Source of the DNA: Candidatus Omnitrophota bacterium
GTDB taxonomy: Bacteria > Omnitrophota > Gorgyraeia > Zapsychrales > Fredricksoniimonadaceae
Direction of reading: 5' to 3'
Assembly: GCA_015232565.1 (NCBI GenBank)
Contig: JADFZK010000003.1
Location: forward strand, 540-64,539
Length of the DNA stretch: 64,000 bases
Shown here: in pieces, positions 3,285-64,000 of the stretch
Layout: each line of letters opens with the position of its first letter
Numbering within the stretch: the stretch's first letter is position 1
Translations under genes and position numbers: made by a program
The notes under the pieces: model-generated
Databases searched by the model: none
Told to the model about the DNA's origin: nothing
What the model saw: the letters and a program-made list of their open reading frames with translations, nothing else

Positions 3285-3679
3285 TACCAATGAATTCCTG
3301 TTCGCCCTAGGGAAAGAACGCCAAACGGCTTCTGAAAAAAGTCCTGGATATCCTTATCGGGAACGAGAAATATTCTCTTTTCATACCCAGGATCATTTTT
3401 CGCGAAGTCCGCAATAATCTGGCTCCCATCTCTTTCAGGGAGTTCATCAAAATCACCGCCATTGCTCGAGTTGATGAAGATATCGTGATCCCTTTCTCCC
3501 TGGCCCACAAATACACCGCGCTTGGACTCAAGAACGCCGATGCGGGGATTGCCGCATACGCCGAATACATCCAGGCAGATATCCTGGTCAGTGAAAACCG
3601 GCACTTCCTCAGCAGCCAAGCAAACCTGCCCTTCAAAGTTCTTACCGCCGAAAAAACATTAAGACTAATAAACAAATGA
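3265..3679 (+). pseudogene. PIN-domain toxin gene, frameshifted (paralog of 31418-31828)
   Basis: N-terminus LRIILDTNEFLFALGKE in one frame; C-terminus …GIAAYAEYIQADILVSENRHFLSSQANLPFKVLTAEKTLRLINK* in another; matches the intact paralog. Confidence 0.5.
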
Positions 3680-3712
3680 ATCTTTGAATTTGAGCCCGGG
3701 CAGGCTCTAAAG

Positions 3713-3955
3713 ATGAAAGGACTTGCCATGAATATCAAAATTGTTCTGGAAAAAGGTGACGACGGATATATCGTTGCGAGCGCCCCTGCACTGACGGGAT
3801 GTTTCAGCCAGGGAAAGACGCAAAAAGAAGCCGTGGCCAACATTAAAGAAGCCATTGAGCTGTATCTGAAGCCCAATTCAAAGACCATCCGCCCCGCACA
3901 CAACACGCACTCCTTGGCAAAGGCTTCGTTTTCTTCATCGGGGCTTTCGGGATAG
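3713..3955 (+). CDS. hicB: HicB-like (UPF0150) antitoxin
   Basis: MNIKIVLEKGDDGYIVASAPALTGCFSQGKTQKEAVANIKEAIELYL matches the HicB N-terminal domain; paralogs at 31832 and 49171. Confidence 0.5.
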   Translation: MKGLAMNIKIVLEKGDDGYIVASAPALTGCFSQGKTQKEAVANIKEAIELYLKPNSKTIRPAHNTHSLAKASFSSSGLSG

Positions 3956-6135: not shown

Positions 6136-6246
6136 TGTAAGCAGGGCCACAGGTAACAACAAAATTGCCCCTAACAGCCTTTGCAACGAACACCCGCCTT
6201 GACCTGCGCTTAATAACCGTGTATATTTGAAGCGAGGTAGATAATT

Positions 6247-6468
6247 ATGACGCAACTTTTGCAAGCCACATACGAACAGGGACAACTGAAACCGACGACT
6301 CCTTTGCTCCTTGCCGAGCATCAAAAGGTTCTGCTGGCCCTGATCCTTACTAACGACGACACTCCCGGGCTTTTTTTGTCCAAACTGGCTGAAAAATCGG
6401 AAAGTTATAAGTTTCTTGATAACCCCGCAGAGAACATTTACTCGATCTCCGATGGATATGACGTATAA
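6247..6468 (+). CDS. DUF104-like antitoxin
   Basis: MTQLLQATYEQGQLKPTTPLLLAEHQKV…; lies upstream of and overlaps the MazF-like gene. Confidence 0.5.
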   Translation: MTQLLQATYEQGQLKPTTPLLLAEHQKVLLALILTNDDTPGLFLSKLAEKSESYKFLDNPAENIYSISDGYDV

Positions 6469-6823
6469 CGCTCGCGCTCTGAACTGCCTTACCCGCGGCG
6501 ATATAATTCTGGTTCCCTTCCCTTTTACAGATCTCTCCTCAACAAAAGTGCGTCCTGCAGTTGTTCTTTCTATCAATGAACAAAACGATATTATTATTGC
6601 TTTTATCTCCTCAGTCACCGAACACATCACTCCTTGTGACCTTCTTTTGAATGCCGACAACAAAGATTTCCCGTTAACCGGATTAAAGAAGTCTTCCGTT
6701 TTTAAAATGAACAAACTTCTGACAATCTCTTCTGCGCTCATCTTAAGGCGCCTGGGATCCGCAAGTCCCGCTCTGCAAAACAAACTTGATACCCTTCTTA
6801 AAAAAGCCCTCAATCTAACCTGA
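6461..6823 (+). CDS. MazF/PemK-family toxin
   Basis: RGDIILVPFPFTDLSSTKVRPAVVLS motif. Confidence 0.6.
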   Translation, partial: TYNARALNCLTRGDIILVPFPFTDLSSTKVRPAVVLSINEQNDIIIAFISSVTEHITPCDLLLNADNKDFPLTGLKKSSVFKMNKLLTISSALILRRLGSASPALQNKLDTLLKKALNLT

Positions 6824-9384: not shown

Positions 9385-10722
9385 CCGCCCCGGGCACAAT
9401 ACGCACGCCTCGGCGAAGGCTTCGTTTTCTTCATCGGTGCTTTCGGGATAGGCCATGACCCGCGCTTCGTGGATAAGCGTCAGAAGAAGTTCTCGACGGA
9501 GGCTTGGGTCGGAGAGAAGCGCCGCGTCGCAATACAAAATTCCATTTCGGAAAGTTGCCCAGATAACATTAAATGGGCCGGAACGGATCTCGACCGTGTC
9601 ACGGATGCGGACCAGGGCCTCCGCAACATGCGAATCGCGCGATCCCACGCCAGCAATGTCTTCATTACAAGCCTGACGGAAATAATCATTCCGCACAAAC
9701 GCCGTCGGCGCACACCGCGCCAGATCCAGGCCAACATTCGTTTCGCTGGCATCCTGGCCTTTCTTGGCCCGGTGCGGATCCCGCGCTCCCTCATTATTTG
9801 TTATTCTACGACGATTCTCGACCAGGACCGGATTATCAAGCTCGTTGGCTATACTTTTGGCGATCTCACAGATCTGGGACAGGATCTGACTAATACGACT
9901 TGCCGTTACCCCCGCGCCTTCTCCTAATTCTCCCAGCTTCTTGCATTGCGGTCGACCATCATACTCGGCCAATAGATAATCCAGGACCAATTGCATTCCC
10001 TTATTATTGCCATACAGCCGTTTAATTCGGGCCCGCAGACCTTCGGTCACTCCCTTCACACCATCCACAACATCCTGCAAGAACAACTGGCGGGAACGAT
10101 CTTCCTGCATATCACTATCCCCGGCCGCCATCTCCCAAAACAAGGATTCATTAGGAGCTTCCGAATCATCACCCTGTACCGGCGCATCTACAGACACCGA
10201 ATGCAATAAACACCCCGCTTCCAGCGTCCCCGCGCGCTTCTTGGCAATTGCACCCCTGGGCAAATAAACGGTCCCGCTAAAACTTCGAAAGAAATCCACC
10301 AGAGCGCCTTCGGCCCGTCTTTTGGCAAAAGTGTCCAATGACGCATCGCTGGTAAAGTTATATCGCTTTACAGCCTCAATATATCCAGCTTGAACAATAT
10401 GCAACCACTCCTGAAGATCGGCCCCCGCAAATGATTTATTAAAATGCCTGTAAACGATCTTCATCAGATCCGGTTTCTTCAGTTCCAGAATAGCCACAAC
10501 CGCCTCTTCATCCCCCTCATTTATCAACACCGCCAATTGCACATCCGAAAGCGTTCCCAGATGAGCCTTCCAGTCTGTAAATGAATAACCTTTCTCCCTG
10601 AATAACTGCCGTGCTTCTGGCGCTAAAGCTGGAGGCACTGAAGTCTGGTCTTTTACTGCCGAACCCACATCAACTGCCGTTGGCTCTCCAACGGGAAGCG
10701 GCGCCAGGATCTCCTTCTCCAT
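9385..10722 (-). CDS. Sigma-70 family factor carrying C-terminal conserved module (copy B, about 9400-9790)
   Basis: ATG at 10722-10720 (MEKEILAPLPVGEP…) verified; region-2-like AVVAILELKKPDLMKIVYRHF…YIEAVKRYNF and region-4-like GVTASRISQILSQI, followed by the DPHRAKKGQDASETNV… module. Confidence 0.55.
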
Positions 10723-17928: not shown

Positions 17929-18042
17929 TACGATAATAATAAACACACCGGCGAGTTGATGAATATGCTCCCTTAACACAAAAGCCGCTTCGCGCGTTAG
18001 CGCCGGCCCCGCCCTGATTCGGTCAGCCTCCAGGGACACCGG

Positions 18043-18149
18043 CCGGAGCTGGACCTTTCCGGCAGGATGCCGGGTCCAGCGGAGTGCCGGAGCTGGACCT
18101 TTCCGGCTGGATGCCGGGTCCAGCGGAGTGCCGGTCCCAGTCAGACCGG
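18043..18149. repeat. Tandem pair of a 44-nt hairpin-forming element (CCGGAGCTGGACCTTTCCGGCAGGATGCCGGGTCCAGCGGAGTG x2) plus a short CCGGTC…GACCGG palindrome; REP- or terminator-like
   Basis: Stem GCTGGACC/GGTCCAGC read directly; further copies at 45878-45940 and 51983-52045. Confidence 0.6.
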
Positions 18150-18169: not shown

Positions 18170-18987
18170 CGGTGCGGCTCAATATTATCCCGCTCCCAAA
18201 ACGGAGCCCTCAAGACGTCAATAAAGACCGCGTCCTCACGAGGATAAAACTTGTGCATCAGCACCCCCGACAAAAACAATCCCGCCAAATACGCGGCCAT
18301 ATCGTAATTATCGAAAACACCTTTAACACCGCTGAGGTCACTCAGATCAAATAACGGACTACCCGCCTGGGAATATTCAACCCAAACGATCATACTAAAG
18401 AAGAATAAAGTTACATAGCGGCCAAGCTTGGCAAAAGCGATCTCCAAAGGAAGTTCATCAACAACATTGGCGAGACCGGCTATTCTGGCCCGACCATTAC
18501 CAACAAACACATACAACCAGCGAATAAACGCATAACCCAGAAATATCACACATGTAATACCCGGCAAGAACAGAAAATCGTTCAGCCACCAATGGTCAAC
18601 ATTTGCCCAGAAGCCGGATAACGGCAGGTACCAGCCCCGGAAATGCTCCCGCAGGACCGCAAAAACCGCAATAACAGCGGCCAGCGTCAACTGCCGGTTT
18701 AAGGCCCACCCGGAAGGCCGCACAACTGAACGATACTTATTCCCGGATTCCTGAAAAGCCAGGCCCTCAAGGATCCCCGCCAATACAACCACGACCAACA
18801 CCGCTAACGGAAAATATAATGCCACATCGCCAAGGATTTGGATCATCCGGTCGAGCGAATCCAGATTTAAGCCGCTCCAAAAAGAACCCGGCATCAAAAA
18901 GCCCGCCCCGGCTAATTGAGCCCCCGCCGCTTTACCCAGCGGACGATCGGATCGGGCGGGATCGGACGAGTTGACGCTCCTCCGCAT
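18170..18987 (-). CDS. Polytopic membrane protein
   Basis: ATG at 18987-18985 verified (MRRSVNSSDPARSDRPLGKAAGAQLAG… then several hydrophobic helices). Confidence 0.45.
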
Positions 18988-19044
18988 AAATGCTATATTT
19001 ATAACGCTTGCACGCAAGAACGATATTAACTGGAGGATGACTAA

Positions 19045-19272
19045 ATGTCTTTTGACCGCATAACCGCCGACCCTTCCATATGCCACGGAAAACCTTGCAT
19101 CAAAGGGCACCGGATCATGGTGTACCAGATACTTGACATGATTGCGGACAATGTTTCTTTTGACGAGATCATTACCGATCACTTTCCCCAACTGACCCAG
19201 GAAGACCTTGTAGCCTGCGTTGAATACGCGGCTTATATAGTACGAAACGAGGAAGTTCACCTTGCCCGGTAA
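19045..19272 (+). CDS. DUF433-family protein (antitoxin-like)
   Basis: DPSICHGKPCIKGHRIMVYQILDMIADNVSFDEIITDHFPQLTQEDLVACVEYAA; proper TAA stop. Confidence 0.75.
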   Translation: MSFDRITADPSICHGKPCIKGHRIMVYQILDMIADNVSFDEIITDHFPQLTQEDLVACVEYAAYIVRNEEVHLAR

Positions 19273-19633
19273 TTGGCGCATACTTTGCGATGAATGCGTA
19301 AGTTTAACAACCATCCAGGCATTGCGCGGTGCAGGAGTCAATGTCACCACGATCCTGGAACTTGCGCTGGCCTCAGCCAAAGACGCAGTCGTATTCAAAC
19401 AGGCAATCCACGACCAGCGCATTCTGTTAACTGAAGACACCGATTTTGGCAACATAACGCTCTTCCCGCCCAGCCTCCACCACGGCATTATCCTGTTACG
19501 TTTCCGCCGCAAGTCAAAAGACGCACTCCATGCCGTCCTCCTGGCATTAATTTCCAACACGGATCCCGCTGACCTGAAAGGCACCCTGGCCATAGTTGAA
19601 GCAGATGGATACCGTCTCCGCCAGTGCAATTGA
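19262..19633 (+). CDS. DUF5615-family PIN-like protein (partner of DUF433)
   Basis: Overlaps the DUF433 stop; canonical DUF433/DUF5615 gene pair. Confidence 0.65.
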   Translation: MPGNWRILCDECVSLTTIQALRGAGVNVTTILELALASAKDAVVFKQAIHDQRILLTEDTDFGNITLFPPSLHHGIILLRFRRKSKDALHAVLLALISNTDPADLKGTLAIVEADGYRLRQCN

Positions 19634-19789
19634 AGCGCCTGGCCGCAAGTGCCAAACACCACTACTAAGACCGTTATCGGAAGATATAATGCCACATTGC
19701 CAAAGAATTGGATCAGCCAATCGAGCGAGTCCGAATTTAATCCGGTCAATAAAGAGCCCGGCATCAAAAAGCCTACCCCGGCTAATTGA

Positions 19790-21045
19790 GCCGCCCCCGC
19801 CGCTTCACTCAATGAACGATTAGCGCTGAACCTTTTCGGCTGGATGTCGGATTCAGCGGCGTGTCCGGGGCAATCAGAATGGTCGGCACTATGCCCTGTA
19901 CCCGTGGACCATTCAACGTAACCTTGCCGGAAATCCCACAGATCGGGCTCTTCCGGTATTGCTTCAATATGTTTATCCAATGCATCCGGTCGCGCACTTT
20001 CGCGGGCCGGCTGTTCTGCCGGAGCTGGCTCTGTCTGTTCTGATTCTGCCTGGTCCGGCTTTTTGGGCTCACGGCTTTTTTCTTCTTGCTCCTGCCTCTG
20101 TTTTAACTGCGCCTCACGGGCGATCTCGGCGTCCAAGTTAGCTTTAGTAAATTCTCCTGGCGGCCTCACAGTCAAACGCCGGACGTCAAGTGTCTGCCAA
20201 TACTTCTGGCGCAACAACATTCCCGCCATCCGTTCCACAAAGACCGGATCATTATTCATAGCCCCGAACTCTGAGGCCCGCGCCCGGCGGATCAGATCGG
20301 CCTCCTCTACAAAACCCCGCTCGGTCAATAACTTAAGTGCATGCTCGTACTTCCAGCAATTATCAGCATAAAATCTAACTCTCCCGCCCAACCTTTCAAA
20401 CTGATCCATCTGTTGCTCGAGTGTTAAATCTTGCAACGAAACACCCGGGTTATTTAAGGCAAAGGTCTCCTGAAAAGCAGGATGGGAGAACACTGTCTTA
20501 ATATCATCCGCAAAACTTTTATCCACCGCGGCGGTATCTTCCGCCGTCCACTGGCGGTCTTCAGCCTTTACGATCTCAAAACGCTCACCTTCGCGCACTT
20601 CACGAAACCGGAAAAAGTGATGCAACCCCAGAACGTGATCCCACGCCGGTTCATACACCGCATATCCACCGGGTGCCGGACCCGCCAGTGTCGGGCACTG
20701 GCCATTTTCATCGGGCGCACCGAGCCTGTACCTTTTAAGCGTGCAATATTGTTCAACAATACCAGTTATACTATCCTGCAAGAACCACAACGCTTCCTGC
20801 GGAGAAGCCGGTGCCCAACCACGATCCCCATCCAAAAGAGAAATAATACTGTCCAAATCTGTAGGGACATGCGCATCGATCAGGAAATTCTGATGGGCCG
20901 GCATTAAGAAAGCTCCCAACAGATCGAACGCTTTTGCTACTGGCGCCGCTGCCGCGGTCACTTTTGCTACAACAGCCGCGGGACCAGTAAACCCCAAAGC
21001 GCTGGCCACACTGGCACATAAACCCAGAAAGTGCCTCCGGCTCAT
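19790..21045 (-). CDS. Tat-signal protein of unknown function with E/Q/K-rich C-terminus
   Basis: ATG at 21045-21043 verified; MSRRHFLGLCASVASALGFTGPAAV twin-arginine signal. Confidence 0.45.
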
Positions 21046-21949
21046 CGAAGTGATATCACCGGGGCCCTGGGACGGAGGAACATCGCCCAGCGGATTATCG
21101 TGGCAGTCGGGATGGCGGCCTACGTTTACGACTTCTAAGCAATTCTCAATCTGTTTATATATATAACTTTCGGAAGCGTCTTGTAATTTAAGCTGTCGTG
21201 CCAGGGCCATCAAGGCTTTAAGGATGCTGGGCGCCGTTTTTACATTACTCATTTCGCCGGCAATAATACGCCCCATCAATCTGGCATCATTCGTATTAAA
21301 CTGCCAGTCAAGCGTAGCGTGTAACAAGGCCAAACCCGCCTCGAGCGCGATCCGGTGCGCCGATCCGATGTCCCCGCTGGCTAGAAAGACCTCGGCCCGT
21401 TTCAATTCCTGATGCAGAATAAACCGCAAGGTCGCGGCCGCCTGTTCATTACGCGCTAAAGTGCGATTCTCTTCCAGAAAGATAATATATGGATCTATCG
21501 GCCGGCTCAAATTTTGCGCTGGCTCGGGCCTGACCTTGCCTGTCCTCCTGAGCCAATGCCAGAAATCAAGATCGGCGCACAGAGCGTCAAATTCGTTGCT
21601 ATACAGCTCGTGACCCAACAACAAGGCCTGGATCTCGGCCGGCAGATCCAAAGCCGCCTGTGCGATCTCGATAGCGCCCGCCACATGACGCATATAGATC
21701 CTGGTCCGAAAACCATTTACCAACCGAACAGGAATTCGTTTATTGCGCATACGCTCGTTCAATTCAGCTTCATTGTAAAACTCCTGAACCATTGCCACCG
21801 CTGCCTGCAGATCCGGAAGATCCTCCCCTTCCAGAGCAAAAAAGCCATTCGTTATAGTCAACTCAAATTGGGCCAGAACTTGCGTGCGTTCAGTCGGGGA
21901 TAACCGACAGTCGCTCTGGCACGGATTGTTATGGTCTCCCGGCCCGGCG

Positions 21950-29640: not shown

Positions 29641-30669
29641 CAGGCCCGCCAGGATCGCTCTTAACTTGACTTTAGCTTTCTCGATCCCCTGCCGGGCCCA
29701 CTCACGAGTTTTGGGCGGCGAGGACATATCCGCAATTTCCTGCAGTATCATTCTCTGGCCGCCTTCCAGGCCGAAGTACAGCACCAGAAAACGCCGGTCA
29801 AGTTCCGACAGCATTTGCAAAGCCCGGGCGAACAAAGCGCCATCCACCAAAGGAACATCACGCTCCGGGGACGCCAGCAGTTCATACAGACAAGCCTTAT
29901 CATCGCCAACCGGGCTGTCTAAAGAACAAGCCCGCTGTAAAGCCATAAGACGGAGAAATTCAATTACCTCTTCCACACTATATTCATGGCCGGCCTCCTT
30001 GAGCCCCGCCGCTATCTTAGAAGCCGATATACCGGGCCGGTGCAGATCTATGTCCAGAGTCTGATCGACACGCTTTTTAAAACGCCGCAATTTTCTACCG
30101 GCAGCGGTCTTCACCCGAACTATGCCGATGGCGGCTTCCAAAGCACTATAGATGAATTTCTTTATCCAGTAAGCCGCGTAAGTCGAAAACTTGCCTTTTT
30201 CCGGATCGTATCTCGCCGCCGCTTTCAGTAAACCCAGATTACCATCGGCAACAAGTTCCATTAATGATAACCCGGCCATACCTTCGAAATCCCGCGCAAT
30301 CTTTATAACCAGCCTCAGGTTACCAAGCACCAGTTTCTCGATCGACTGGTGATCCTGTGGCCGGGCATCCAACGCGGGTTTGCTGGCCTTAATATCCCTG
30401 CCCAGACGCTCTTCCTCTTCCTTGGTAAGCAATTCGTTCCCCCCAATGATCCTCTGGCAATACCATGACAGGCCAGCCAAAGCCAGCGCAGTATCATCAT
30501 TACTGCGCCTGCGCTCTCGCGCATCCCTCACGGGAACACGAACAGCCAGGCCATCCTCAGGCTCCTCAGTCTCCCCAGACAATTCATCGACAATATCCCG
30601 CAACGCCTCCTCTAGTGCCTGCTCATCTTCCGCGGGCACGGCCGTAAGGTCAATCTTGCCAGCCCTCAT
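29640..30669 (-). CDS. Sigma-70 family factor (number 1), core regions 1.2 to 4; possible N-terminal extension up to about 31190
   Basis: LRLVIKIARDF…GLSLMELVADGNLGLLKAAARYDPEKGKFSTYAAYWIK (region 2) and LQEIADMSSPPKTREWARQGIEKAKVKLRA (region 4); ATG at 30669-30667 verified. Confidence 0.6.
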
Positions 30670-31269: not shown

Positions 31270-31440
31270 ATGATATCCAAAGCAGAACAAGCCCTTAAGC
31301 ATTTGCACAAAGCCCGCGAACTGGCTAAAACCCTCCCTAACCCGTTCAAAGGCCTTACCAAAGACCAGATAATTGCCAAACTTCGCGCTTCCCGCGAGAA
31401 GCTGTGGCGGGAGAAATATGCGGTTGGTGCTCGACACTAA
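31270..31440 (+). CDS. Small antitoxin-like protein (paralog of 3108-3284)
   Basis: MISKAEQALKHLHKARELAKTLPNPFKGLTKDQIIAKLRASREKLWREKY; overlaps the PIN gene start. Confidence 0.55.
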   Translation: MISKAEQALKHLHKARELAKTLPNPFKGLTKDQIIAKLRASREKLWREKYAVGARH

Positions 31441-47300: not shown

Positions 47301-47649
47301 CGGGACCCGGCACCTGGGCCTCGGATGAACCAGCCTCTCTATTGCGCGGAGCCAGAAGAGCCTGGATGGTACCACGCAATGAACGGCGCACGGGCTGCGA
47401 CCGGGGCAGTTCACGCCGGGCCGACACTGGTACAACAACCGCACCATTAGAAAGGCCCGCATCCACAACAGCGCTTTGCGAAGCTGTAACCACCATCTGC
47501 GCAGGCTTCAGTATACGCGCAAAGAATTCACGTCGATCTGCATTATGCGCAGGCACTGCCGCGGAACTTCTTAACGCGGCCGGGCGATGCAGTATTAGCA
47601 CTGAGAAGCCGTAGAGAATAGCGCCGGCTGTAATTAGCGCCGGACAGCC

Positions 47650-48990
47650 CAGCGCCGCGCCCACTGCCGCAATGAACGCTCCGGGACCGATATATGTTAC
47701 AGAGTCGCCGGCCGATTCTTCTTCCGAGCTATTACCAGTGCCCGTGGCAAATTCCCAGACGCCGGTATTATTGCGCCAGTCAGTCTCCATGCGCTCTATG
47801 GCTTCTTCTTTCAGGAGTTTAACACGCTGATATTCAGCCTCATTCCTGGCCTCTTCTTCATGATACCTCTCACAGAAATCTTTTTCCGCTTGTATTCTGG
47901 CTTCTTCCCTGCGCAATTGCTCAATATATGCATCTTGGTGCTTATTAAACCACGGATTTGAAACCAATAACCCAGGATCCATTCCACGAAGTATCTGATC
48001 AACCGCGACAACTCCAGGGTTATCAGGATGCTCACGCGAAAGCTCTCTGACCCTGCCATGACTCATGCCCTTTAGATGCAGATAGACCTTTCGTGCTTGA
48101 TGAGCCGCTACCATATATCGATATTTATCCCCTTCCTCCTCAAATGGCAGGTCAAAACCGAACCGGTCCTTAAGCCCAACCACTGCTTTGCCAAAATCAA
48201 TTCCTTCAAAAGTACGCATTGTTTGATAACTAAAACCGGTATATCTTGCTCCGGGAGAAACGGTTACAATTTCGGGGGTTTCAACCGCTATGGCCATGCG
48301 ATCGGCCAGTTCCCGGTTCGATTGGCCTATCCCCAACGTGAAAAAACCATCGACAATAGTCCGGAACTGTCTTACTGTCGGCACCTGGAAAGCAGGGTCG
48401 GCCAATTTTGCTTGAAGAGCCAAACGACAAATAGTGAAACAATCCTGTTCCACATTCACAACTCTCCCAAGGTCTATACCCTGTTGACAAGGTTTCACCA
48501 TGCCATCCAAATGAAATGTCACCGCTCCTAATACCTGTAATTTCTCCCACGAAAGATTCTTCAACCACGCCGGCGTGAACGATGCCCCTTGCACCATAAC
48601 CGACGGATTAGCCAACACGGCGCCAGTGAGCACGCTGGCGCTTCTCAGGAACCCCTTGCGCCCGGCGCGGAACTGAAGATCTGCCCACACTGCGCGCGCG
48701 AGTTCTTGTTCCGGCGTTATCATGGCCAAAGCTTCACGATTCAGCCCCATCTGACGAACCATCCGGTTGAGAGCGGCTTCACGGGACGCGTTTCCAAATA
48801 TCAGCTCGGCAATGTCCGCCGCAACACGGGCCACCGGATCGCTGAATAGATTACGGATCCGCCAAGCCAGGCCCGGCGCCTGTACCAAACGCTCCAATTC
48901 CGCAACCCCCGCCTTCATCCATCCCGCCACCAATTCATCAGGTGAAATATTTATGGAGCGTGATGCCGGGGCTACCGGTACATTAGCCAT
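47650..48990 (-). CDS. Hypothetical protein present in only one copy of the duplicated module
   Basis: ATG at 48990-48988 verified (MANVPVAPASRSINISPDELVAGW…). Confidence 0.35.
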
Positions 48991-49170
48991 GCCCATCAGC
49001 GCCGCAGGCACAATGGCGGCCAGGACCACCGGGATCCACACAGTCCAACCGCCTTCGGCAAATCCGCAAGTGAATATTACGATCAAAGCCAAAGAAACGC
49101 CCCGCAGGAGCCGGGCGTTGACAAGGCCCGTCAGGCGTGTTAGATTCAAACTAACCGGAAGGACAACATT

Positions 49171-49398
49171 ATGGTAAAACATTTCAAAGCGATCATTGAA
49201 CAGGAAGCCGATGGCGGCTACTCGGCACATGTTCCGATCTTCCCCGGCTGTGCGACCCAGGGTGAGACCCTCTCCGAATGCCTGGCTAATATTAAAGAAG
49301 CCGCCACTCTTTACGCCGAATCCCTTATCGAGGACGGTATCCCCCTGCCGTCCGTTGAACCCGAAGTTATGTTGCAGAACATCGAAGTAACCGTATAA
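49171..49398 (+). CDS. hicB: HicB-like antitoxin
   Basis: MVKHFKAIIEQEADGGYSAHVPIFPGCATQGETLSECLANIKEAATLYAESL. Confidence 0.65.
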   Translation: MVKHFKAIIEQEADGGYSAHVPIFPGCATQGETLSECLANIKEAATLYAESLIEDGIPLPSVEPEVMLQNIEVTV

Positions 49399-49401
49399 CA
49401 A

Positions 49402-49632
49402 ATGACCAAACTTCCGCAAATATCCGGCAAAGAACTTGTGCGCGCCCTGCAACGTTCGGGCTTTACGATACGTCGCCAGCGGGGCTCCCACGTTATCATG
49501 GTGCATGCCACTGACCTGGCCCGGCGCTGTGTTATTCCGGTTCACGGCAATACCGCCATTAAACCCGGAACCCTGCATTCCATCCTTGACGGCGCCGGCT
49601 TCACAACCGACGAATTGCTGGATATTATTTAA
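49402..49632 (+). CDS. hicA: HicA toxin
   Basis: SGKELVRALQRSGFTIRRQRGSHVIMVHATDLARRCVIPVHGNTAIKPGTLHSILDGAG matches the HicA/YcfA family. Confidence 0.7.
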   Translation: MTKLPQISGKELVRALQRSGFTIRRQRGSHVIMVHATDLARRCVIPVHGNTAIKPGTLHSILDGAGFTTDELLDII

Positions 49633-49989
49633 ATCCGCTGCGGAACTTCGTAACACTGCCGGGCGATACAGTATTAGCACTGAAAAGCCGTAGAGAATAG
49701 AGCCGGCAACGATAAGCGCCGGGCAGCCCAGCGCCGCGCCCACTGCCGCAATTAACGCTCCGGGGCAAAAATAACTCCTGGAAGACGCAGATTCATTATT
49801 TACCACTTCATTCATTTGAAAATTAACACCCCTTGAGCCCCTCTGCCTGCGCAATACTTCCTGCATGGCCCTGATCGCCGGGGACGAAACACTATAAACT
49901 CTGGAACTTTCGGCGCGCTGGACCGCAACGGCCGACAACAATGCCCGTAATAATTGCCGATGATGTTCCGCCCCGATAAAAGCCGCCTT

Positions 49990-53430: not shown

Positions 53431-54114
53431 CTTGGGACCCGGCACCTGGGGTTCGGATGAACCAGGCTCTCTATTGCGCGGAGCCAGAATAGCCAGAATG
53501 GTACCACGCAATGAACGGCGCACGGGTTGCGACCGGGGGAATTCACGCCGGGCCGACACTGGTTCGACAAGCTCACCATTGGAAATGTCGGCTACGCCCA
53601 TGTCATTCTTTACAGCCGAAGCCCTGCCAGAACTTTGGGCCTGTACAGTGCCGATCCTGGACAGATCAGGCTCAACACTTTGCGAAGCTGTAACCACCCT
53701 CTGCGCAGGCTTCAGCATAAGCGCAAAAAATTCACCTCGATCTGCGTTATGCGCAGGCACTGCCGCAGAACTTCTTAACGCGGCCGGGCGATGCAGTATT
53801 AACACTAAAAAGCCGTAGAGAATAGCGCCGGCTGCAATTAGCGCCGGGTAACCCAGCGCCGCGCCTGCCGCCGCAATGAACGCTCCGGGGCAAATATAAC
53901 TCCTGGAAGACGCAGATTCATTATTCACCACTTCATTCATTTGAAAATCAACACCCCTTGAGCCCCTCTGCCTGCGCAATACTTCCTGCATGGCCCTGAT
54001 CGCCGGGGACGAAACACTATAAACTCTGGAACTTTCGGCGCGCTGGACCGCAACGGCCGACAACAATGCCCGTAATAATTGCCGATGATGTTCCGCACCG
54101 GTAAAAGCCGCTTT

Positions 54115-54975
54115 CACCTGGACCACTATTGCCTCCAGCGCCTCCGGATGAGTAAACAACCCGTAATGTCCAACATCCACCCGGGTAACCCCGCCAACAG
54201 AAGCCTCGCCACGGAGCAAAGCACTGCGGAATACCGCCTCATCAGCCCTGGTAAAGTATATGCCGCGCAAGAATGCAAAAGGCCGCTGATGGGTTTCCCG
54301 CTTCGGACCCACCGCCGATACCGACGCAAAAACATGCCGGAACCGCGCCAGGCCAGCCGGGCTGTCCTGCGCCAGGCGCGCCGGGCTTACCGGATCGAAC
54401 ACCGCCAGGGCGGCATCCTTGGCATGGCCAATACCCAGCCAGCGCACCAACAGCTCCTGTACCCGTACTACCCGCGCAACAAAAGGATCCGACAAACCCA
54501 AAGCTTCCGCCGACCCGCCCCACAAGGGGCCCACCAGAACCAGGCGGGGCTGGTTTCCGGCACATAATCTTTCCCCGCGCGCAGCGGCCAGTTCCACCGC
54601 CCGGGCCAGCACCAAATGCCCCAGGGAATACGCCACTATCACCAGGTCGCGCCGGGGATACTTTTTATGAAAATCACGGATAACCTTCAACACAACAGCC
54701 GCGGAAACAGTCAATGGCGCAAAATGGTCATACGGCACAACGATCATGTCGGCCGTGAACAGCAGCAATTCAGCCCTTAAAGGTTGCAGGTCAGTACAAT
54801 TAGCATCCACGCCGGGTATCACCATTACCGCCCGGGCAGTGCTGGAATCAGGACGGTCCAGGAACGTCTGGGCCCTAAAAGCCGTCACCACTTCGCGCGA
54901 TTGCCGGCGTATGCGTGGATTTAAATTGTCAGGGAAGAACCGCCAGGAACAAGGCGACGTCCTCACCGCCACCAC
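54115..54975 (-). CDS. Alpha/beta-hydrolase copy 2
   Basis: Duplicate of 49990-50850 (block 54079-54567 matches 49954-50440); …DLVIVAYSLGHLVLARAVELAAARGE…. Confidence 0.5.
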
Positions 54976-56899
54976 CATGAAAGGCAGGCACAATATGCGG
55001 CAAACATAACGCAGCACCCAAGCCAGCACTTCGCGCATCTTCGCCAAAGCCGCCAAAACAAAACCAAAGCTTTGCACGTTAATTATTACCACGGCTACCA
55101 GCAGGGCCGCCGCGCCGATCCAGAGCCATCCTGTCGGCAGGATGCCGGCTATGCCGCCGGCCAGGGCCGCACTGCCTGCAGCGGCCGTCGGTACTACCGC
55201 CGGCAAGGTAACCGGCGCCAAACATGCCCCGGCTATACCAATAAGCCGGCCAAAGCGCAGGCCTTTCCTGACCAGACCGGGTACGCGATCACCAGAAATC
55301 GCTGCCGCAAGCGCGTCTTCCATATATGTTCCGGAAGGGATAATAAGCGTTACCTTTTGGGTACCGCCTTCATTGCGCTCAACTTGCACTGCGATTTCGT
55401 GCCGGTCAAGTAGCTGGCCTTCTTCCCTGCGCACAGCAGGATCCCTATCATCCAGGATCACCGTAGCCCACGGCACGAGGTGGGCCCAGGGACAGCCGCT
55501 GGGAACGCGCACGATCCGGTCTTCAAGTACACCGGCCGGTGACGAAGAATTCAACACGTCAGGTACCGGCGCAGCCAATTCACGACGTAATAGTTCTTTA
55601 GCCAAAGCGGTATCCCTGGCATTTCCCTGACTCCAGGCATCCATGAACAATGCCTTTAATGACCTGCGCTGTACCGCCCCACCAGCCGCCCCGGCGAGCA
55701 TGGCCGGACGGATATCCACCGCCGGCAAGCGCTTACGCTGACCCAGCACCGCCTGCACCTGCGGCCACATAATAGCGGCCGCCTGCACCCAAAGCGCCCG
55801 GCGCTCGTCGGCTGAGGTGGAACGGAACAGGATCTCGTGATTCTCCATCAAATATTTATCGGTCAAGAGATAACAGAGCCACAGCCGCTTGTTGCCGGAG
55901 AGGCTTAAGTCGGACAGCGTTTCCGGACGCACAGCCACCCGGCGCAGGGTATCGCGCAAGTCAGGCAGGTGCAGCTCCGCGAAGAACGCGTACTGGGCAC
56001 GGAAAACAGCCGCCTCATCCAGCGGCGCCTGCCCCTGAAGCGGAGCGGCAAACTCGTTGAACAGACACGCAAAAGGCTCGTAGCCGGCCTCCGCCAGTTC
56101 CCGCCGGGCGTTGGCAAAAGAAAATGCCCCGCCCCTGGCCGCCCAGGACAGGAACTCCAGCTGGGAGCACAACTCTTCATGTTCACAAGCCATCACTTCG
56201 GACAGCAACAAGGCATATTGCCCCTGGCTCATACGGGCGGGAGAATCACTGATAAGATTCGGGCGCTCCTGCAGGAAAACAAAACCCGCCGCTTCCCGCA
56301 CTATCGTCGAGATCACTACCACAAAGGCCAGAGCCGAAGTATTATCCGCCGACCACATGGCGTCCAGCCTGGCGACAGCCGGCATATCAGCGCTGATCAT
56401 GATACGCCCGGTTAAAGGATCCCGGTACTTGGAAAGGTTAGTGCCGAACGGGCCGTCCGTTATAGCGCTTAGCCCGTTACTGCGGATATAAGCCGCATAT
56501 GTTTCCACCCCGGCCGCGCCCGGCCAGCCCAGCTCACGCAACCGCGCGGCCGTTTTATCTGCCAGGCTCAGTACCACCGCAGTTTCCCCGGCAGAGAGCC
56601 GCACCGCGGCTGGTTGTCTAACACCGGCCTTTTGGGCCTGCCGAAGGGCAAAATGGTGCCATCCCAGTGCGCCACCTGCGACGGCCAGACCGAACAGTGC
56701 CAGCCAGCCTCGACGAGAATACACTGCCGGACCGGCCTGCTTCGTGGACGAACGACCCGGTAAATTGCTTTCATTCAGCCTGTTCGCTTCGGCGAGCACA
56801 TCAGCGATCATCCGCTCTTTACTACGGACATTCGTCTCACCGGCGATCTGTAATAACTGCCCATAGAACCGGGAAAGACGGCCCATAAACACAGCATCA

Positions 56900-58050: not shown

Positions 58051-59249
58051 CAAAGCAATATCCATTTTAGTCATCGGCGCCTGCTGAACACCCTGAAGAT
58101 AAATAGACAGCGAAGTATCCGGATTCTGCAATTGGGCAATAATGCCACCCATTGTATCTGGCGTTACCGGAATAAATACTTTGCCTGAAGAAGAGGTCTT
58201 TACCCATATACCAATATCGTCCCAATGATAGCAGCGTCTAAGAACTTGCCACAAATAGCCAGGTTGCCTGCAACTACCTGCCGTAATCAGCGCCTCCACA
58301 GGAACAATGAAGCCGGTATAGACCTCGCCGTAGCCAGGCTTATCTTCGGCTTCCTGCGCAAGTTTCCGTTCAAACTCTTCTGCCCCTGAATCCGCCCTCA
58401 TAGTGTTTAATCTGTCCCGTTCTTGAACAAACATCGCCATCTCTCCCACGGTAAGTTTCAGCCCTATGAGTAAAGCCATCTGCCGTTCTCTCTTTACATA
58501 TGTTCTCAGCAATTTCCACCGGGTAGCACTGTTATTCTCTGGATCAATCCCCAGCTCCTGCAACAATTCCCTGCGAACAGAAGGCCATTGTTCATGATGG
58601 TCTACAAAACCTCCGGCAATGGTCAAGTACCTGTTATATTTACTGCTTCTACGCAGTATCAACGGAATATGCCCCAGATTATCCACCGCCAAAACATCTA
58701 CCACCACCGTAACGAAGCCGCATAACAAGGCCACTATGATCGGCAAAGGTCCAACATAAACTTTCTCCCTGTCGCAATCCTCTTGCGTTAACGGTCTCAT
58801 CATAGGGGCATAACACATCTTTCCGTCTTCTCCAACTTTTCGTTCACAAAGAACCATGCAATCGTCGCCAAAATAATGACCCGCGGCCGGATCAAAGTTC
58901 TGTTCCAACTGGGCCATACAAGCCTCGATCTGCTCTGAAGATAAAGGCTGGAATTTTAGGTCGCCCCTGCCAAGCTCCTTTGATCCATCCTGACCCAGTT
59001 CCTGTAATATCTTCCTGACCTTGGGCAAATACAATGCCAGATTTTGATTTTTCGGCAGGGCCTTTGAGTTCTTTTTACGATAAACCACCACTACCGACAA
59101 GATCACCAAAGCAAAGATCACAATCGCCAGCGTCGGCCAGGTAAGCGTCGGCCAGACAGCCGCCCACAATTGGGGGTCAATACAATCTCCCCACGTCATA
59201 CTAACCGCGCTAATTTCCTGTTCAGCCAACAGAGTAACCGGCAAAAACT

Positions 59250-62200
59250 GGGCCACCTTTTCCATTAATGCAGGCCGACCCGCAGAAGCCTCTTCAACAA
59301 GCCTTACATTGCCAAACTCCGGATTATCGGTCACTTTCCATTCACTTTCACACCCGCGAATATCAACAATAAAATCCGCCGCCCACAAAGTGCGCTGTTT
59401 GTACCGGTTCCAGCTCGGGATCAACCCATGGGTAAGGAACCGTAATTCAAGGTCGGCAGTAGCAGGGTTCATACTACGCGTACGGATCTCAAAATGCGCG
59501 CGGGTCCGGTCAACATTATCCTCCAGGCTCAGCGTAAGATCGTAGTACGGTAGAAAATCTTCCCGCAAAGAGTACTTGCCATCCACCAGGACGATCATGC
59601 CTTTTGTCAGCTCCAAAGTAACATCTTCCCGGGCATGCTGGCCGCGAATGTACGCATCCTGTATAACCACCGTCCCTTGCTCTGCCCCCGAGAGGCCAAA
59701 TTCAGAAATGGCCTTTAAAACAGCACGGATAGCGGCATGATCCCAGAACACTTCCTCCTCGGCCAAAAACTCATCACCCGGGCGCACGAGCATAGTCAGG
59801 CTGGCGCCGATCAGGGCGGAATCATCCTCCGAAAGAGGGTCCCCAAGACTGGCCCTGGCCGCTGCATCCCGGAATAGTTTTGGCTTCAGGCAGAAATCCT
59901 GTCTGAAGATCGCAACTTTGTGGCCCCTGACACGCAAAATTTCGGCAACCCCGGACAGCAGGGTGGTCTTCCCCGAGCCCGACGCCCCGTCCAGAGCCAC
60001 CAGGGTTAACGTACCCGGCCCATTGTTTTCCGCGATCCCCGCGGCGATATCGGCGATCTTTTCTCCCACACCGCCCAGATTGCTTCGGAAAAGTTCCTCG
60101 TCCGCCATCTTAACCGGCCGGCCGGTAGCCGGATCGATGACCGGAAAACCATAAAGCCCGTTCCTTTTCGCCCACGCATGCACCGCAGCCGGAACTATGG
60201 CCGGGTCGCGGGTGTTCCGATAATAACGGGACGAATTGCCCAGGTCGATCTGCGGATGCTGTATCAGGACCATTTCCAGCTTATGCTCACAGCCCACCTG
60301 GCCGCGGATCTCTTCAGCAATACGCTCAAGCTCATCCGCAGTCAATGTGGCTCCATACTCTCCCCGTTGAACCCAGCCGATAACAATCTTGTGATTGCCC
60401 GCCATGCGGGGGCGATAATCTTTATAATCTGTGTAAAACTGCTTAATGTAATGCCGCACACGTATTTCACTCTCAATGCCCAGGCCATAAGTTACCTCCA
60501 GCGATTCTTGCTGGTTGCCATCCAGAAAAAACAACAGATCCTTGAAGCCTTCCCGGCCATGCCCAAGGTCGGTCATTTCGATCAACGGACTATAATCTTT
60601 AACCAATTGGGAGGTGATCCGGTGCCGCGCATCATATGGCGCCTCTTCCTTACTATCGACGATCTTGAATTTTATTTGCCGATCGATCCGGATCAATATC
60701 TTGTCCAGTTTCAACAGCATCAAAGCAAATAACGGCGGAATAATATGACCGTAATGCGGCGGATTGGCGGTAATGCTCCAGAAAAAGATCTTCTTTACCC
60801 GGCGTTCCGTCCCGCCGATGGAACACGGATTTGCCGGACCGTAAAATTTCGTCTTAACCTTGACCCAGGGATGAACAACACCGGAAAGGATCAGTTCCGG
60901 AATGCCTTGATGCACAGTTTGCAAAGCCGCATACACTTTGGATATCAGCGGCTCCGTTTTCTGATCAACCGCCGGATCATGTTCACGGATCGCATGGTCT
61001 ATTTTATCCCAGGCTGCGGTAAGGATCCGGACCTCATGTTTTATAAAAAGGCTGGTCTTCCAGCTTTCCTCAACCACCACTCCCGCACGCGCCAGGGCCT
61101 GGCCTTGAATAAATTTAAGATACTCGGCGAGTTCTTTCGGCATTAGCATCTGGATCAATTTCTGCGCCTGCGCTTCCTCAACCTGCGGCTCCTGATACTC
61201 CGGGAATTTCTTATGTTTCAGCTCGTGCAACAGGTTGTCCCGGACAAACCACCGGGCCATAGCGGCGGAATGCTTTAACAAGCCCGGCAATATATCCAGA
61301 AAAGCCAGATGGATATATAGCTCATTCTCCTCAACATCAATAGCGCAAAGCGCCCCGCCGGTCTTTCCCGCATCACCGGTAATAATGACTGTCAGGTCCA
61401 CCGGCAGAGTGTTGAACTCAAACTGGCCCAGTGCCGCGTTCTGCTCCGGGGTAAGCCGGCTTTCATACTTTCCCTCGGGATCAAGGACCACGCCCGTATC
61501 ATTGCCATCATATTCCGCCAGCAACTTCTTGCTTAAACGATAGGGCGACAACCGCAGGGGGGTCGAGCCCGCCTGCGTTTGTTCATGGGTAGTTACAGGA
61601 ACCAAGGCCAGCAAGCAGTTCAATTGGCCATAAACTTGCCTCAAAAGGTTATCCGGTAATACTGAAGTATTCAGCCGTCCTTCGATCTCGCGCCAACGCG
61701 CGATATCAAAATCATTCAAGGGCTTATTTTGAAGTGTCGGATCCACAAAACTCCTCACCAACAACACAATGCCATACCCCATACTTAAAACAGCGTCTTC
61801 AACACTGGCAGCACGCAAATACTGGTTTTGTAAAATAACATCTAACTCGGATAGCTGATTCTTATAAGCAGCCAGGTCTCCGGCTGTGCGCACATTGGCC
61901 GCCAGTTCAGCGATCAAGGTCACCGCCCGGTTAATCTTTTCAACCGCAATGTCACTAATACCGGTATCGACCCTCGCGATCCCAGCCAAGGCTGCTTTGG
62001 ATATCGGCCATGCCAGGCCTGACAAATCTGGCGCTGGCACATGCGCAGGCGCGACAACTTTCACGGCACTAGTCACAGGCGCAAGAGCGGCGGTCTGACG
62101 ACGCTCCTCCGACGAGACAAGCGGCATTTCCACTATCTCATATTGCTTGCCGGCCAGCACCACAATAACCTGCGACGCCAGATTTAATGCTTCATGAGTT

Positions 62201-64000
62201 ATTACAAACGAAACACTGGCAAAACGAATGGCAATGTTTTTATCGGTAAGCGTGATTTCCTGCGAAGCACCATTAGCGCCCTGGACTATGATCTTAACCC
62301 CCATGGCCAGAAGCTGTTCTTTAAGCAAACTGGCAACATCGGCCTGAAGCTTAGCGGCAATACATTGTTCGGAAAGAGTGATGCTGATAGCGTAATTCTT
62401 TACCTCAACGCTCCGCACAGCCTCCGGAGGAGCATTGGGGCTGTGGGCGGCCAGAATAGCCTTTACAATAGCCGCCGGTGACTGGCGAGAACAAAGATCC
62501 TCTGCTTCCTCGATCTCTTTTAACAATGCCGCGGCTTCTGCCATCTGCACCGGGCTGGTAGTTGCCGCCCCCACCAACTCCTCTTCTTTCCCTTTAACTT
62601 TTTTCATATTTCTGCTCAACAAGTCAGCGCGTTCCTTGATGCCGGGCAGTGCTTTTACCAGCGTATCCCGCTTGCCGGTCTCCCGCAACTGTGCTTTCAC
62701 CGTCACGTTATGCCGCATAAGATACCAGATCGTTGCGGCGATCAAGACCAGGCCAAGAACACCCAGGCCCGCCATTCCCCAGATCATCACGCTATGCGTC
62801 AATAATCCGTGTAAAATATAGGTATTGTAAACCAGCGGTGAGATCACCAAAGACACCACCGTGATAGCGACCATCATCCGGCGTACCACGCTCATCGTAT
62901 AATCCAGCGCCGGATTGCTAACCAGATCCCAAAGGCTCAAACGCCAGACCGCCGTCAGCAAGATCGCGGCCGCCGCCACATGCAACAACAAACCTCCCGG
63001 GATCAGCGCGGTCAGCAGGAATGGCACATAGAAAACCAGGAGGCCAGTCAGGGCAGTTGTGGCATACGCCACGGCGCGTTGATTAACAGAATAATTCGAA
63101 TGCCCCCGGTGGGTAGCTATCAGAAAGCTCACGCTAAAGATCGCGAAAATGGCCATAACCGCAAACCCGGCGAAGATACCGCCCGAGAATAACGAATGGC
63201 CTTTAACGGCAAAGGCTGTAAAGAAAAGCCCCAGCATAGCCGCCGCCGCTTTAATGTAGAATACACCCGACGAACAAGGCAGAAGGTCCTTACTGCCATA
63301 AGTATCAAATATCCGCCGGGTAGATTTATTCTTTTCAATAACACCTTGCAGCGCTTTATATATGTCTACTCTGAGGTCTTTTGTCAGTGCCGCTTCCGCA
63401 TCCGTCGGATCGATTTGCACGCGGATCGTATCCGCATTGATCTTTTCAACAAATTGATTTTTCCCGTCAGAAAGCACCTTAAAGATCATACCCAAATTTT
63501 GCCCGGCCGATTCCAGCTGTTGTCGCGAAATAATGCCCTTCTTTAGCACGTCCTTTTCATCTTTCGCTTCAATAATGTCCTTCACCACTTTATATAATTC
63601 GCTCCCCAGGGCTGTTGCTATTGCGTCCTTGCGCTTTGCTAACCTTGCATTCATATCATCTTTTGACAATCCAAGGCCACTGAGGATCGGCAGATCAGTG
63701 CGCACGCGGATCGTATCCGCATCGACCTCCTCACCAAAGTTTTTGGTCCCGTTGGTAAGCGCCTTAAAGACCACGTCCCAGTTCTGCCCGGCCGCTTCCA
63801 CATCGACTCGGGTAATAACCTTCTCCGCCACAAAAATATTACGGAAAGTCTCCAGGCCCGGACCCTTAAAGTTTGCCAGGAAGAATGAATTATAAAAATC
63901 AGCCAGCATAACCCCCAGGATGTTCACCGGGATCTGGAAGCCGGCAAAAACCAGGACGCGGTTAAAGAAGTCGCGAATATTAATGAAGTTGCCAACCGCC
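59250..64000 (-). CDS. Large multidomain membrane protein, 5' end beyond the window: N-terminal ~100-aa repeats, polytopic TM block, HEXXH motif (LLHELKH, about 61240), HxGH nucleotidyltransferase-like motif (ITANPPHYGH, about 60745), uridine-kinase-like P-loop (LDGASGSGKTTLL, about 59960)
   Basis: All three motifs verified by back-translation of the indicated lines; the frame is open to position 64000. Confidence 0.4.

Follow-up and report, generated by a model that had tools for sequence, protein, structure and literature searches.

The phylum Omnitrophota is known for giant open reading frames (ORFs). Two studies report ORFs of up to 85,804 amino acids (West-Roberts et al. 2023, bioRxiv 10.1101/2023.11.21.568195) and of up to 147,155 amino acids (bioRxiv 10.64898/2026.06.07.730766), and in the first of them ORFs of at least 20 kb are described as transcribed on a single mRNA, with a 39,678-amino-acid product found by proteomics (10.1101/2023.11.21.568195). 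The first study counts 46 ORFs above 90 kb and the second 916 above 10,000 amino acids; transcription as one mRNA, and translation, are reported for Velamenicoccus archaeovorus. According to the same studies, 'multi-enzyme' giants are tiled by dozens of unrelated Pfam domains (NUDIX, kinases, peptidases), with PPDK frequent in 'Archaeovorins'; different giants share essentially no sequence similarity; giant genes show frameshift-type breaks in metagenome-assembled genome (MAG) assemblies; and cleavage of the products is raised as an open question, with peptidase domains noted (10.1101/2023.11.21.568195; 10.64898/2026.06.07.730766). Here we analyzed a 64,000-nt stretch of DNA from a Candidatus Omnitrophota bacterium (positions 540 to 64,539 of contig JADFZK010000003.1, assembly GCA_015232565.1; hereafter the window), in which a stop-free frame of the minus strand runs through five islands of plus-strand toxin-antitoxin (TA) genes. 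We consider it likely that this frame is one genuine giant Candidatus Omnitrophota gene, encoding a mosaic protein rich in transmembrane (TM)-like segments, that it is under selection for uninterrupted reading and that it hosts five opposite-strand TA cassettes.

The window ORF has much in common with the published giants. It shares with them the phylum, a length of tens of kb, TM-like segments at approximately one per 400 amino acids and internal duplications, as well as a mosaic of unrelated Pfam domains (NUDIX, kinase/PPDK, peptidase) within mostly unannotatable sequence, the lack of detectable similarity to other giants and frameshift-type breaks in MAG assemblies. It is a single uninterrupted ORF of more than 10,000 amino acids, where the giant tier is set at more than 30,000, and its 20,230 codons are a lower bound since the 5' end lies beyond the window. 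The affiliation is supported by the product of an antitoxin gene next to the ORF (3108-3281), which matches exactly NCBI MBF0386468.1 (HQL20_01270), an entry derived from a Candidatus Omnitrophica MAG, and by two embedded TA families whose nearest named relatives are found in Omnitrophota/Omnitrophica MAGs.

We found that the stop-free frame spans 3310 to 63999, where it runs off the right edge of the window, and that it is closed by a TAG at 3307-3309 (60,693 nt including the TAG); the length of 20,206 amino acids quoted in a preliminary description of the window refers to this ORF too, with the first GTG inside the window taken as its start. All 52 stops in this register lie within 1-3306, whereas the other five frames contain 546, 595, 899, 1167 and 928 stops and their longest ORFs measure 423-1452 nt. 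Given 53% GC and the observed strand composition, approximately 4.5% of random codons would be stops, which corresponds to approximately 900 stops in the giant frame. We rejected the possibility of an alternative genetic code, since the frame lacks stops of any kind and the TA genes terminate at standard stops with lengths as in their homologs.

We next compared codon models for four frames along the giant ORF. Approximately 6% of it, in five TA islands, scored as plus-strand coding and the remainder as minus-sense coding; four further intervals flagged as plus-strand were short (180-210 nt) with low scores. Of ten long plus-strand ORFs that were tested, nine had no Pfam match and read as antisense junk. 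The minus-strand coding potential is confined to a single frame, an outcome that could not be produced by erasing stops from an ordinary multi-gene region. Furthermore, internal paralogous segments gave dN/dS values of 0.43, 0.22, 0.32 and 0.40 in the giant frame, compared to 0.63-1.64 when the same paralog alignments were read in two shifted frames. These data indicate that the giant frame is under protein-level purifying selection. The GC content at the three codon positions is approximately 0.60/0.44/0.57 in almost all chunks of 3 kb, and it falls in the two that contain the largest TA islands. The giant protein contains 50 TM-like segments, i.e., one per 404 amino acids (Kyte-Doolittle hydropathy of at least 1.8 over 19 amino acids, a crude predictor).

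The preliminary description had reported the 60.7-kb open frame and the hundreds of stops missing from it, and both observations stand. It had also concluded that the frame is not a biological unit and cannot be one gene; the purifying selection and the confinement of minus-strand coding to one frame do not support this, and its premise, that one gene could not combine unrelated proteins in a frame, does not apply in a phylum known for mosaic giant ORFs. One correction to it concerns the extent of antisense reading: codon-position GC is constant at 3-kb resolution apart from the dips at the largest islands, and only the five islands read as antisense, the remainder of the frame scoring as minus-sense coding.

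The genes of the five TA islands were identified by Pfam and pairwise comparison. They are given here with the number of stops in the giant frame and in its two sister frames on the minus strand:

3108..3952, plus strand: TA island 1, antitoxin 3108-3281 (outside the giant ORF), VapC-like 3311-3676 and HicB 3713-3952; over 3310-3952, giant frame 0 stops, sister frames 5 and 15.
6184..6820, plus strand: TA island 2, AF2212-like antitoxin 6247-6465 and PemK/MazF toxin 6476-6820; giant frame 0 stops, sister frames 9 and 16.
18948..19657, plus strand: TA island 3, DUF433 antitoxin 19045-19269 and DUF5615 toxin 19262-19630; giant frame 0 stops, sister frames 10 and 7.
31200..32400, plus strand: TA island 4, first part, antitoxin 31270-31437, VapC/PIN_3 31421-31825 and HicB-like 31832-32005.
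31200..32400, plus strand: TA island 4, second part, second antitoxin 32077-32253 and a degenerate VapC remnant after 32165; over 30997-32256 of island 4, giant frame 0 stops, sister frames 28 and 15.
49118..49629, plus strand: TA island 5, HicB 49171-49395 and HicA 49402-49629; giant frame 0 stops, sister frames 15 and 4.

Pfam matches on the plus strand include DUF433 (1.7e-22), DUF5615 (9.4e-22), HicA (1.5e-16), PemK/MazF (1.1e-11), HicB (1e-10 and 7.5e-8) and PIN_3 (1.6e-6), while AF2212-like was borderline and HicB-like weak; the VapC-like copy and two antitoxins were identified by paralogy. Neighboring genes overlap as in type II TA operons (8 nt for DUF433/DUF5615, 17 nt for antitoxin/VapC). 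The giant frame reads the islands as junk peptide in stretches of approximately 165-400 amino acids. For example, RRKRNRIMPWWRLGG, at amino acid 14830 of the giant protein, is the reverse reading of PPSLHHGIILLRFRR in DUF5615. The antisense course through real TA genes and this junk peptide had both been recognized in the preliminary description.

Stop avoidance in the islands is specific to the giant frame. Across the islands (1,184 codons), stops number 0 in the giant frame, compared to 67 and 57 in the two sister frames, and the intergenic and promoter parts of the islands are likewise stop-free. An antisense stop rate calibrated on the giant gene itself (2.5-4.0% per codon) predicts 29-48 stops in the islands. 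When the ten TA proteins were held fixed and their codons were resampled synonymously according to host codon usage, 19.2 stops were expected, and the product of the per-gene probabilities of zero stops, P(0), was approximately 5e-11; for single genes P(0) reached 0.85 (MazF), and it was approximately 0.04 for each of the MazF and HicBA pairs. The silent sites show how the frame is kept open. Among TA genes in the register of the giant frame, none of 45 leucine codons is TTA or CTA (16% in the host) and none of 20 serine codons is TCA (11% in the host). Among those offset by one base, none of 30 CAx codons follows a T-ending codon and none of eight TAx codons follows a T- or C-ending codon, compared to 12 of 43 CAx and 3 of 15 TAx codons in the same contexts of non-nested homologs. 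The depletion is thus achieved via silent sites and leaves the TA proteins intact. Since the silent sites of the islands avoid giant-frame stops while the TA proteins are preserved, these patterns argue that stretches of 0.5-1.2 kb are constrained on both strands.

We then compared the nested TA genes with relatives elsewhere. Among seven distinct VapC homologs (59-65% identical) that lie in ordinary contexts on Omnitrophica and metagenome contigs, six have 1-4 stops in the giant-frame register, in agreement with the expectation of the preliminary description that homologous loci would hold the missing stops. In the seventh, the open stretch is limited to the module itself (600-678 nt). In general, the open stretch of non-nested relatives ends at the module borders, with some of them locally open over 423-678 nt. 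In contrast, the DUF5615 toxin has its closest relatives (46-56% identical) in antisense orientation within a stop-free frame that reaches at least one contig end:

L001/L008 (one sequence in two datasets), 2.4 kb, GC 42%: DUF433/DUF5615 antisense in an open frame.
L002, 0.9 kb, GC 57%: DUF5615 relative antisense in an open frame.
L004, Omnitrophota MAG: antisense frame open over 1-2453.
L005, Omnitrophota MAG: 0 stops over 17,440 nt, compared to 416 and 377 in the sister frames.

Relative to the toxin, every nested case has its open frame in register 2, as does the window. In L005 the open frame encodes PTA_PTB (1e-32) and Peptidase_M54, the nested DUF433 and DUF5615 genes are intact, and the plus-strand ORFs other than the TA pair read as antisense junk. 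Across approximately 20-50% protein divergence, the nested DUF433/DUF5615 copies retain intact ORFs and their overlapping start/stop geometry. Outside the TA module, the host ORFs of the nested relatives show no similarity to the giant protein of the window. Neither the more distant relatives (34-41%), among them the two from named Verrucomicrobiota MAGs, nor one closer relative, L003 (52%), are nested. Because it recurs in four independent contigs, the arrangement is not a property of this assembly, and comparison of these loci indicates that it is natural, recurrent and old.

Several of the related loci hold further arrangements. L001 carries a second nested plus-strand pair at 1260-1845, DUF5678 (2.9e-11) and a gag-type aspartyl-protease-like gene (1.2e-6), so nesting is not limited to classical TA families. 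In L004 1-4159, two long open minus frames (1-2453 and 2434-4158) overlap by approximately 20 nt and resemble a frameshift-broken giant ORF, as at the 3' end of the window ORF. In two ENA metagenome contigs (L021 2030-4524 and L022 92-2438), a close VapBC homolog adjoins a reverse transcriptase (RVT_1) and a bAvd gene in an arrangement like that of a diversity-generating retroelement, and the TA module there lacks stops in register 2 over no more than a local 678 nt. In L016 10001-19021, from an Omnitrophica MAG, a non-nested VapBC pair stands tail-to-tail with a 2,847-amino-acid gene on the opposite strand; in such an arrangement, loss of a stop followed by read-through could bring a TA cassette inside an ORF.

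Two of the islands are bounded by duplications of host coding sequence, and the inserted and flanking segments are:

18788..18947: left copy of an approximately 160-nt direct duplication flanking island 3; giant-gene coding sequence with a hydrophobic TM-like segment.
19658..19820: right copy of the duplication flanking island 3, 82% identical.
47695..49636: 1,942-nt composite insertion, consisting of approximately 480 amino acids of plausible minus-sense module and TA island 5.
47558..47685: left copy of an approximately 130-nt duplication flanking the 1,942-nt insertion, encoding a recurrent hydrophobic hairpin motif.
49637..49764: right copy of that duplication, 128 nt, 89% identical.
53678..55001, minus strand: paralogous empty site, with continuous giant-gene sequence lacking the 1,942-nt insertion.

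The spacings of the filled sites, 870 and 2,079 nt, are both multiples of three. Duplications of this length point to recombination-based integration, as opposed to classical transposition, as the probable route of entry. Since the flanking arms have diverged by 11-18%, the insertions are old, and there was time enough for tolerated stops to appear in them. We rejected a reading of the islands as integron cassettes, since they are bounded by duplicated host coding sequence and not by a common imperfect palindrome, and the window holds no integrase. A 66-nt hairpin repeat found in the giant gene (D6, described below) is not at the cassette borders in four of the five islands.

The 3' end of the giant ORF lies within island 1, where its stop falls between antitoxin and toxin. 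Beyond it we found the following:

2582..3329, minus strand: stretch into which the giant ORF may once have continued at its 3' end, open in two other frames, from 3329 to 2802 and then from approximately 2960 to 2582.

The reading from 3329 to 2802 is antisense to the antitoxin and the promoter repeat described below, and 2802-3290 is stop-free for 162 codons; the final part, to 2582, resembles genuine protein. Compared to its paralog at 31421-31825, the VapC-like gene at 3311-3676 lacks its first approximately 33 residues precisely at the break of the giant frame (3290-3330), and one indel may have damaged both. The simplest reading of these features is that island 1 was once internal too, and that one or two indels, either real or assembly errors of the type reported for giant genes, would now end the frame at 3307.

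Each of the five islands has a predicted plus-strand sigma-70-type site (10-11 of 12 matches) located 21-126 nt upstream of its first gene:

6184-6339, plus strand: promoter-bearing 156-nt repeat of island 2, TTGACC-17-TATATT.
2937..3092, plus strand: second copy (81%) of this repeat, upstream of antitoxin 3108 in island 1.
18971-18999, plus strand: promoter-like site of island 3, a consensus match only.
31219-31247 (11/12) and 32029-32057, plus strand: promoter-like sites of island 4, consensus matches only.
49118-49146, plus strand: promoter-like site of island 5, a consensus match only.

The hexamers are identical in the two diverged copies of the repeat in islands 1 and 2. An extended -10 TG was flagged at the three sites that the scan covered, and the number of promoter-like sites per region was not above that in shuffled sequence.

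None of five nested TA proteins (3713-3952, 6247-6465, 19045-19269, 49171-49395 and 49402-49629) is present in a collection of 15 billion proteins, while the product of the non-nested antitoxin 3108-3281 is (MBF0386468.1). The absence of the nested proteins and the presence of their non-nested neighbor point to an annotation blind spot, in which gene callers skip genes nested in giant ORFs. Additional TA genes are found 3' of the giant ORF, within 227-1353, namely an antitoxin-like ORF at 248-484, for which an exact look-up returned no match, a PIN gene at 450-902 (2.4e-10) and a second PIN-like gene split over two frames (963-1217 and 1138-1350) that is probably frameshifted.

Matches of the giant protein to Pfam and NCBIfam are sparse and mutually unrelated:

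29647..30468, minus strand: sigma-70 module that covers an entire RpoS/RpoD-type profile, Sigma70_r2 (7.5e-12) and positions 16-275 of 285 of the RpoS model (E 1.3e-30, far below the equivalog cutoff).
21883..22605, minus strand: Peptidase_M50 (site-2-protease family) module, 3.1e-13, approximately the size of a stand-alone small M50 protein.
24670..25482, minus strand: PPDK_N-like phosphotransferase module 2, a profile match and paralog of module 1.
35737..35883, minus strand: core match of PPDK_N-like phosphotransferase module 1, a profile match.
58486..58707, minus strand: NUDIX hydrolase module, 4.9e-5, over the gathering score.
10282..10476, minus strand: second, weak sigma-70 region-2-like segment, under cutoffs.

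Additional matches comprise an HTH and a P-loop kinase-like segment. We searched one stretch of 1,200 amino acids (13590-14789) exhaustively with HMMER against 1.84 billion representatives and obtained stand-alone M50 peptidases of 200-400 amino acids, aligned over most of their length, and no giant relatives for comparison. The sole match outside M50 was a weak one (E 4.3e-7) to a 2,110-amino-acid protein (P0096); it covers amino acids 14090-14266 (approximately 21200-21730), a stretch without Pfam annotation. Since the M50 matches are stand-alone proteins aligned over most of their length, they suggest that gene-sized units are fused into an otherwise orphan sequence. The preliminary description had noted this joining of unrelated modules, and our matches bear it out for the whole sigma-70 profile (its second sigma-70 is weak), M50, PPDK_N twice and NUDIX. 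The sigma-70-type and M50 modules share one polypeptide. In other bacteria, proteases of the site-2-protease family free sigma factors from membrane-bound anti-sigma factors, and a link between the two modules is conceivable.

The giant ORF also contains repeats. A hydrophobic hairpin motif (CPGA.IAA.GAALG.PALI.AG.ILYGF.VLIL.RPA.) occurs four times in the giant protein, and a 78-nt unit (26 codons, 83% identical) is duplicated in tandem and in frame at 38250-38405. The GC-rich D6 hairpin repeat is located at:

18040..18149: two overlapping copies of the 66-nt D6 repeat, read as an in-frame P/G/R-rich linker.
19817-19882, 45875-45940 and 51980-52045: other D6 copies from the repeat search.

Fold z-scores of the well-preserved D6 copies range from -3.1 to -3.7. 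D6 has no Rfam family match and is not present in 24 related loci. It is the only hairpin-like family in the window, in which a short-range inverted-repeat search found no abundant REP-type hairpins, and it accounts for the hairpin repeats that the frame had been said to cross. No Rfam families or tRNAs were found in the scanned sequence.

How could a giant gene come to carry intact operons on its opposite strand? We propose that the giant gene is built from gene-sized modules (sigma-70, M50, PPDK-like, NUDIX, P-loop) and unannotatable sequence, and that it was probably enlarged by internal duplication. Selection would demand uninterrupted translation, or no termination, along the whole ORF, and stops arising in cassettes would be purged. 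Only antisense cassettes in the most stop-poor register could then survive, and cassettes that are stop-free by chance (a few percent for two of them) may pass this filter and subsequently be kept open. Cassettes may spread between giant genes by recombination, leaving host duplications of 130-160 nt, and may persist as selfish addiction modules that incidentally protect the repeat-rich giant gene against deletion. Several points weigh against this account. The conservation of the giant protein as a whole rests on internal paralogs only, and elsewhere only single-domain homologs were found (with the one 1,200-amino-acid stretch searched exhaustively). The divergent SecA-DEAD domain, which is typical of most published giants, was not found in the 20,230 amino acids scanned, the N-terminal part being outside the window. 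Published giants typically have type II/IV secretion-like genes upstream and pilZ genes downstream; flanking type II secretion genes were not seen in the available part, where the 3.3 kb downstream of the giant ORF contain TA genes and a lipoprotein-like ORF without an NCBIfam match. The giant ORF ends in a TA island, so that the final 214 codons, antisense to island 1, read as junk and no coding sequence follows them in frame; selection for continuity would account for this ending only if the frame was broken at 3307 recently or through an assembly error. The promoter assignments are consensus matches only, and the evidence that the giant gene is transcribed and translated as a unit is indirect, consisting of the dN/dS below 1 and the purging of stops from linker segments without function.

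We weighed these findings against other explanations. It is very improbable that one frame lost its stops through assembly, consensus polishing, protein-guided assembly or deliberate design. The depletion is perfect, as such an artefact would have it, an exact search for a 44-mer of the window found nothing in three DNA collections and the giant protein gave no self-match (1,500-amino-acid query, with a word prefilter that was probably saturated). However, the product of a flanking gene has an identical NCBI entry, which comes from an Omnitrophica MAG, and the same stop-free arrangement with TA genes in antisense exists in independently assembled ENA, JGI and NCBI MAG contigs with a GC content from 42 to 57%. 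Erasing stops could neither place all minus-strand coding in one frame nor yield a dN/dS below 1 there, and the TA proteins are untouched, with only silent contexts differing. The preliminary description was correct that stops are selectively missing from this one frame (0 compared to 67 and 57, with approximately 19 expected), but a synthetic, decoy, assembly or consensus origin is at odds with the public MAG source and the recurrence in independent contigs. The window and the recurring contigs contradict its statement that an antisense course through TA operons does not occur in real bacterial giant genes, and the lack of a known precedent may hold for the nested antisense TA genes only, of which we found no description, as the giant ORF itself is of a known kind. 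Chance or composition, by which TA genes would be intrinsically poor in antisense stops in this register, is scarcely credible on its own, even though register 2 is the most permissive one, non-nested homologs hold as few as 1-4 stops per toxin with some open locally, and P(0) is high for MazF. The joint P(0) over the ten genes argues against it, as do the stop-free intergenic and promoter parts and the extent of the open stretch, which stops at the module borders in non-nested relatives and reaches at least one contig end, over 0.9 to 60.7 kb, in nested ones. Chance is refuted as the sole cause, and it is part of why antisense cassettes in register 2 pass the filter.

That the nested TA genes are dead relics, with only the giant frame selected and their intact look owed to recent insertion, is improbable as well. 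This reading would accommodate the truncated VapC-like gene 3311-3676 and the degenerate VapC remnant after 32165; the divergence of the flanking duplications nevertheless makes the insertions old, yet ten TA ORFs are full-length with strong profile matches, diverged nested DUF433/DUF5615 copies all keep intact ORFs and their start/stop geometry, and promoter-like sites are conserved down to identical hexamers in two diverged copies. A more serious contender, though one we still regard as unlikely, is that the frame is open without encoding one functional protein. The ORF would then be a polyprotein-like or translationally coupled array, cut into separate proteins with the antisense-TA linkers discarded, and it would be kept open so that ribosomes, and transcription with them, proceed. 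The modules are indeed gene-sized and mutually unrelated (a whole sigma-70 profile, an M50 module of stand-alone size), a protease module is part of the same chain, junk linkers are tolerated, and the giant-gene literature leaves cleavage open and notes peptidase domains. On the other hand, the predicted cleavage or processing has no supporting sites, and M50 proteases cut within membranes and, to our knowledge, do not act as polyprotein processors. Furthermore, such an array would refine and not replace the model of a single giant gene with nested cassettes, since both need uninterrupted translation.

On the model of a single giant gene, stretches that are meaningless as protein have been kept stop-free over long periods and in several lineages, which suggests that termination anywhere in the ORF must be harmful. 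Authors of giant-gene work call it open whether each giant is read and used as one unit, and nested TA cassettes give an evolutionary answer to this question without culturing. They also provide unusually clean examples for a debate in bacterial genomics, that on long antisense overlaps in which both strands are constrained, and suggest a new niche for selfish elements together with a possible mechanism that stabilises giant genes. We tentatively raise the possibility, which we hold with somewhat more doubt than belief, that certain Omnitrophota TA lineages are specialised antisense residents of giant genes, with a fixed register and selected silent sites, that move between unrelated giants. 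If true, these would be the longest well-supported antisense dual-constraint loci in bacteria, the openness of the cassettes would be a natural experiment indicating that giant ORFs must be translated end to end, and the cassettes may act as anti-deletion addiction modules for repeat-rich giant genes. The giant gene thus belongs to a known kind, and its nested, recoded antisense TA cassettes appear to be undescribed, judging from a full-text literature search. The terms 'antisense', 'opposite strand' and 'stop codon' are absent from both giant-gene papers (10.1101/2023.11.21.568195; 10.64898/2026.06.07.730766), in which nested opposite-strand genes are apparently not discussed.

Compared to the described Omnitrophota giants, the visible part of the window ORF lacks C39 and dockerin domains, and it has a whole sigma-70 module, which is not among the contents quoted for them. 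Three other systems resemble the cassettes in part. Rickettsia palindromic elements (RPEs) are reportedly selfish repeats inserted in frame in protein-coding genes. The likeness is that selfish DNA survives within an ORF, adding residues without a stop or frameshift; D6 behaves alike and the TA cassettes do so conceptually. RPEs are, however, non-coding palindromes of approximately 100-150 nt, while the cassettes are operons of 0.5-1.2 kb with promoter-like sites and functional-looking proteins on the other strand. Chromosomal TA cassettes, as in the Vibrio superintegron, are said to stabilise large dispensable regions. There, as in the window, small type II TA operons, each served by a promoter of its own (only predicted in the window), are scattered along a long, repeat-rich, deletion-prone stretch, and a stabilising role in the window is conjecture. 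In the superintegron the cassettes are intergenic, with attC sites at their ends, whereas in the window they are embedded in a coding frame, with host duplications of 130-160 nt at their ends. Antisense overlapping genes have been described in Escherichia coli O157:H7, namely pop, antisense to ompA, and ano (PMC7103648, PMC5960689). These share with the window two fully overlapping ORFs on opposite strands of one locus, but they are single, short (186-603 nt), lineage-restricted, of uncertain function and arose by overprinting (PMC7103648, PMC5960689). In the window, well-known protein families are nested, the overlap reaches 1.2 kb and comparative data suggest constraint on both strands, even though one of the two readings is probably a functionless peptide that need only stay open.

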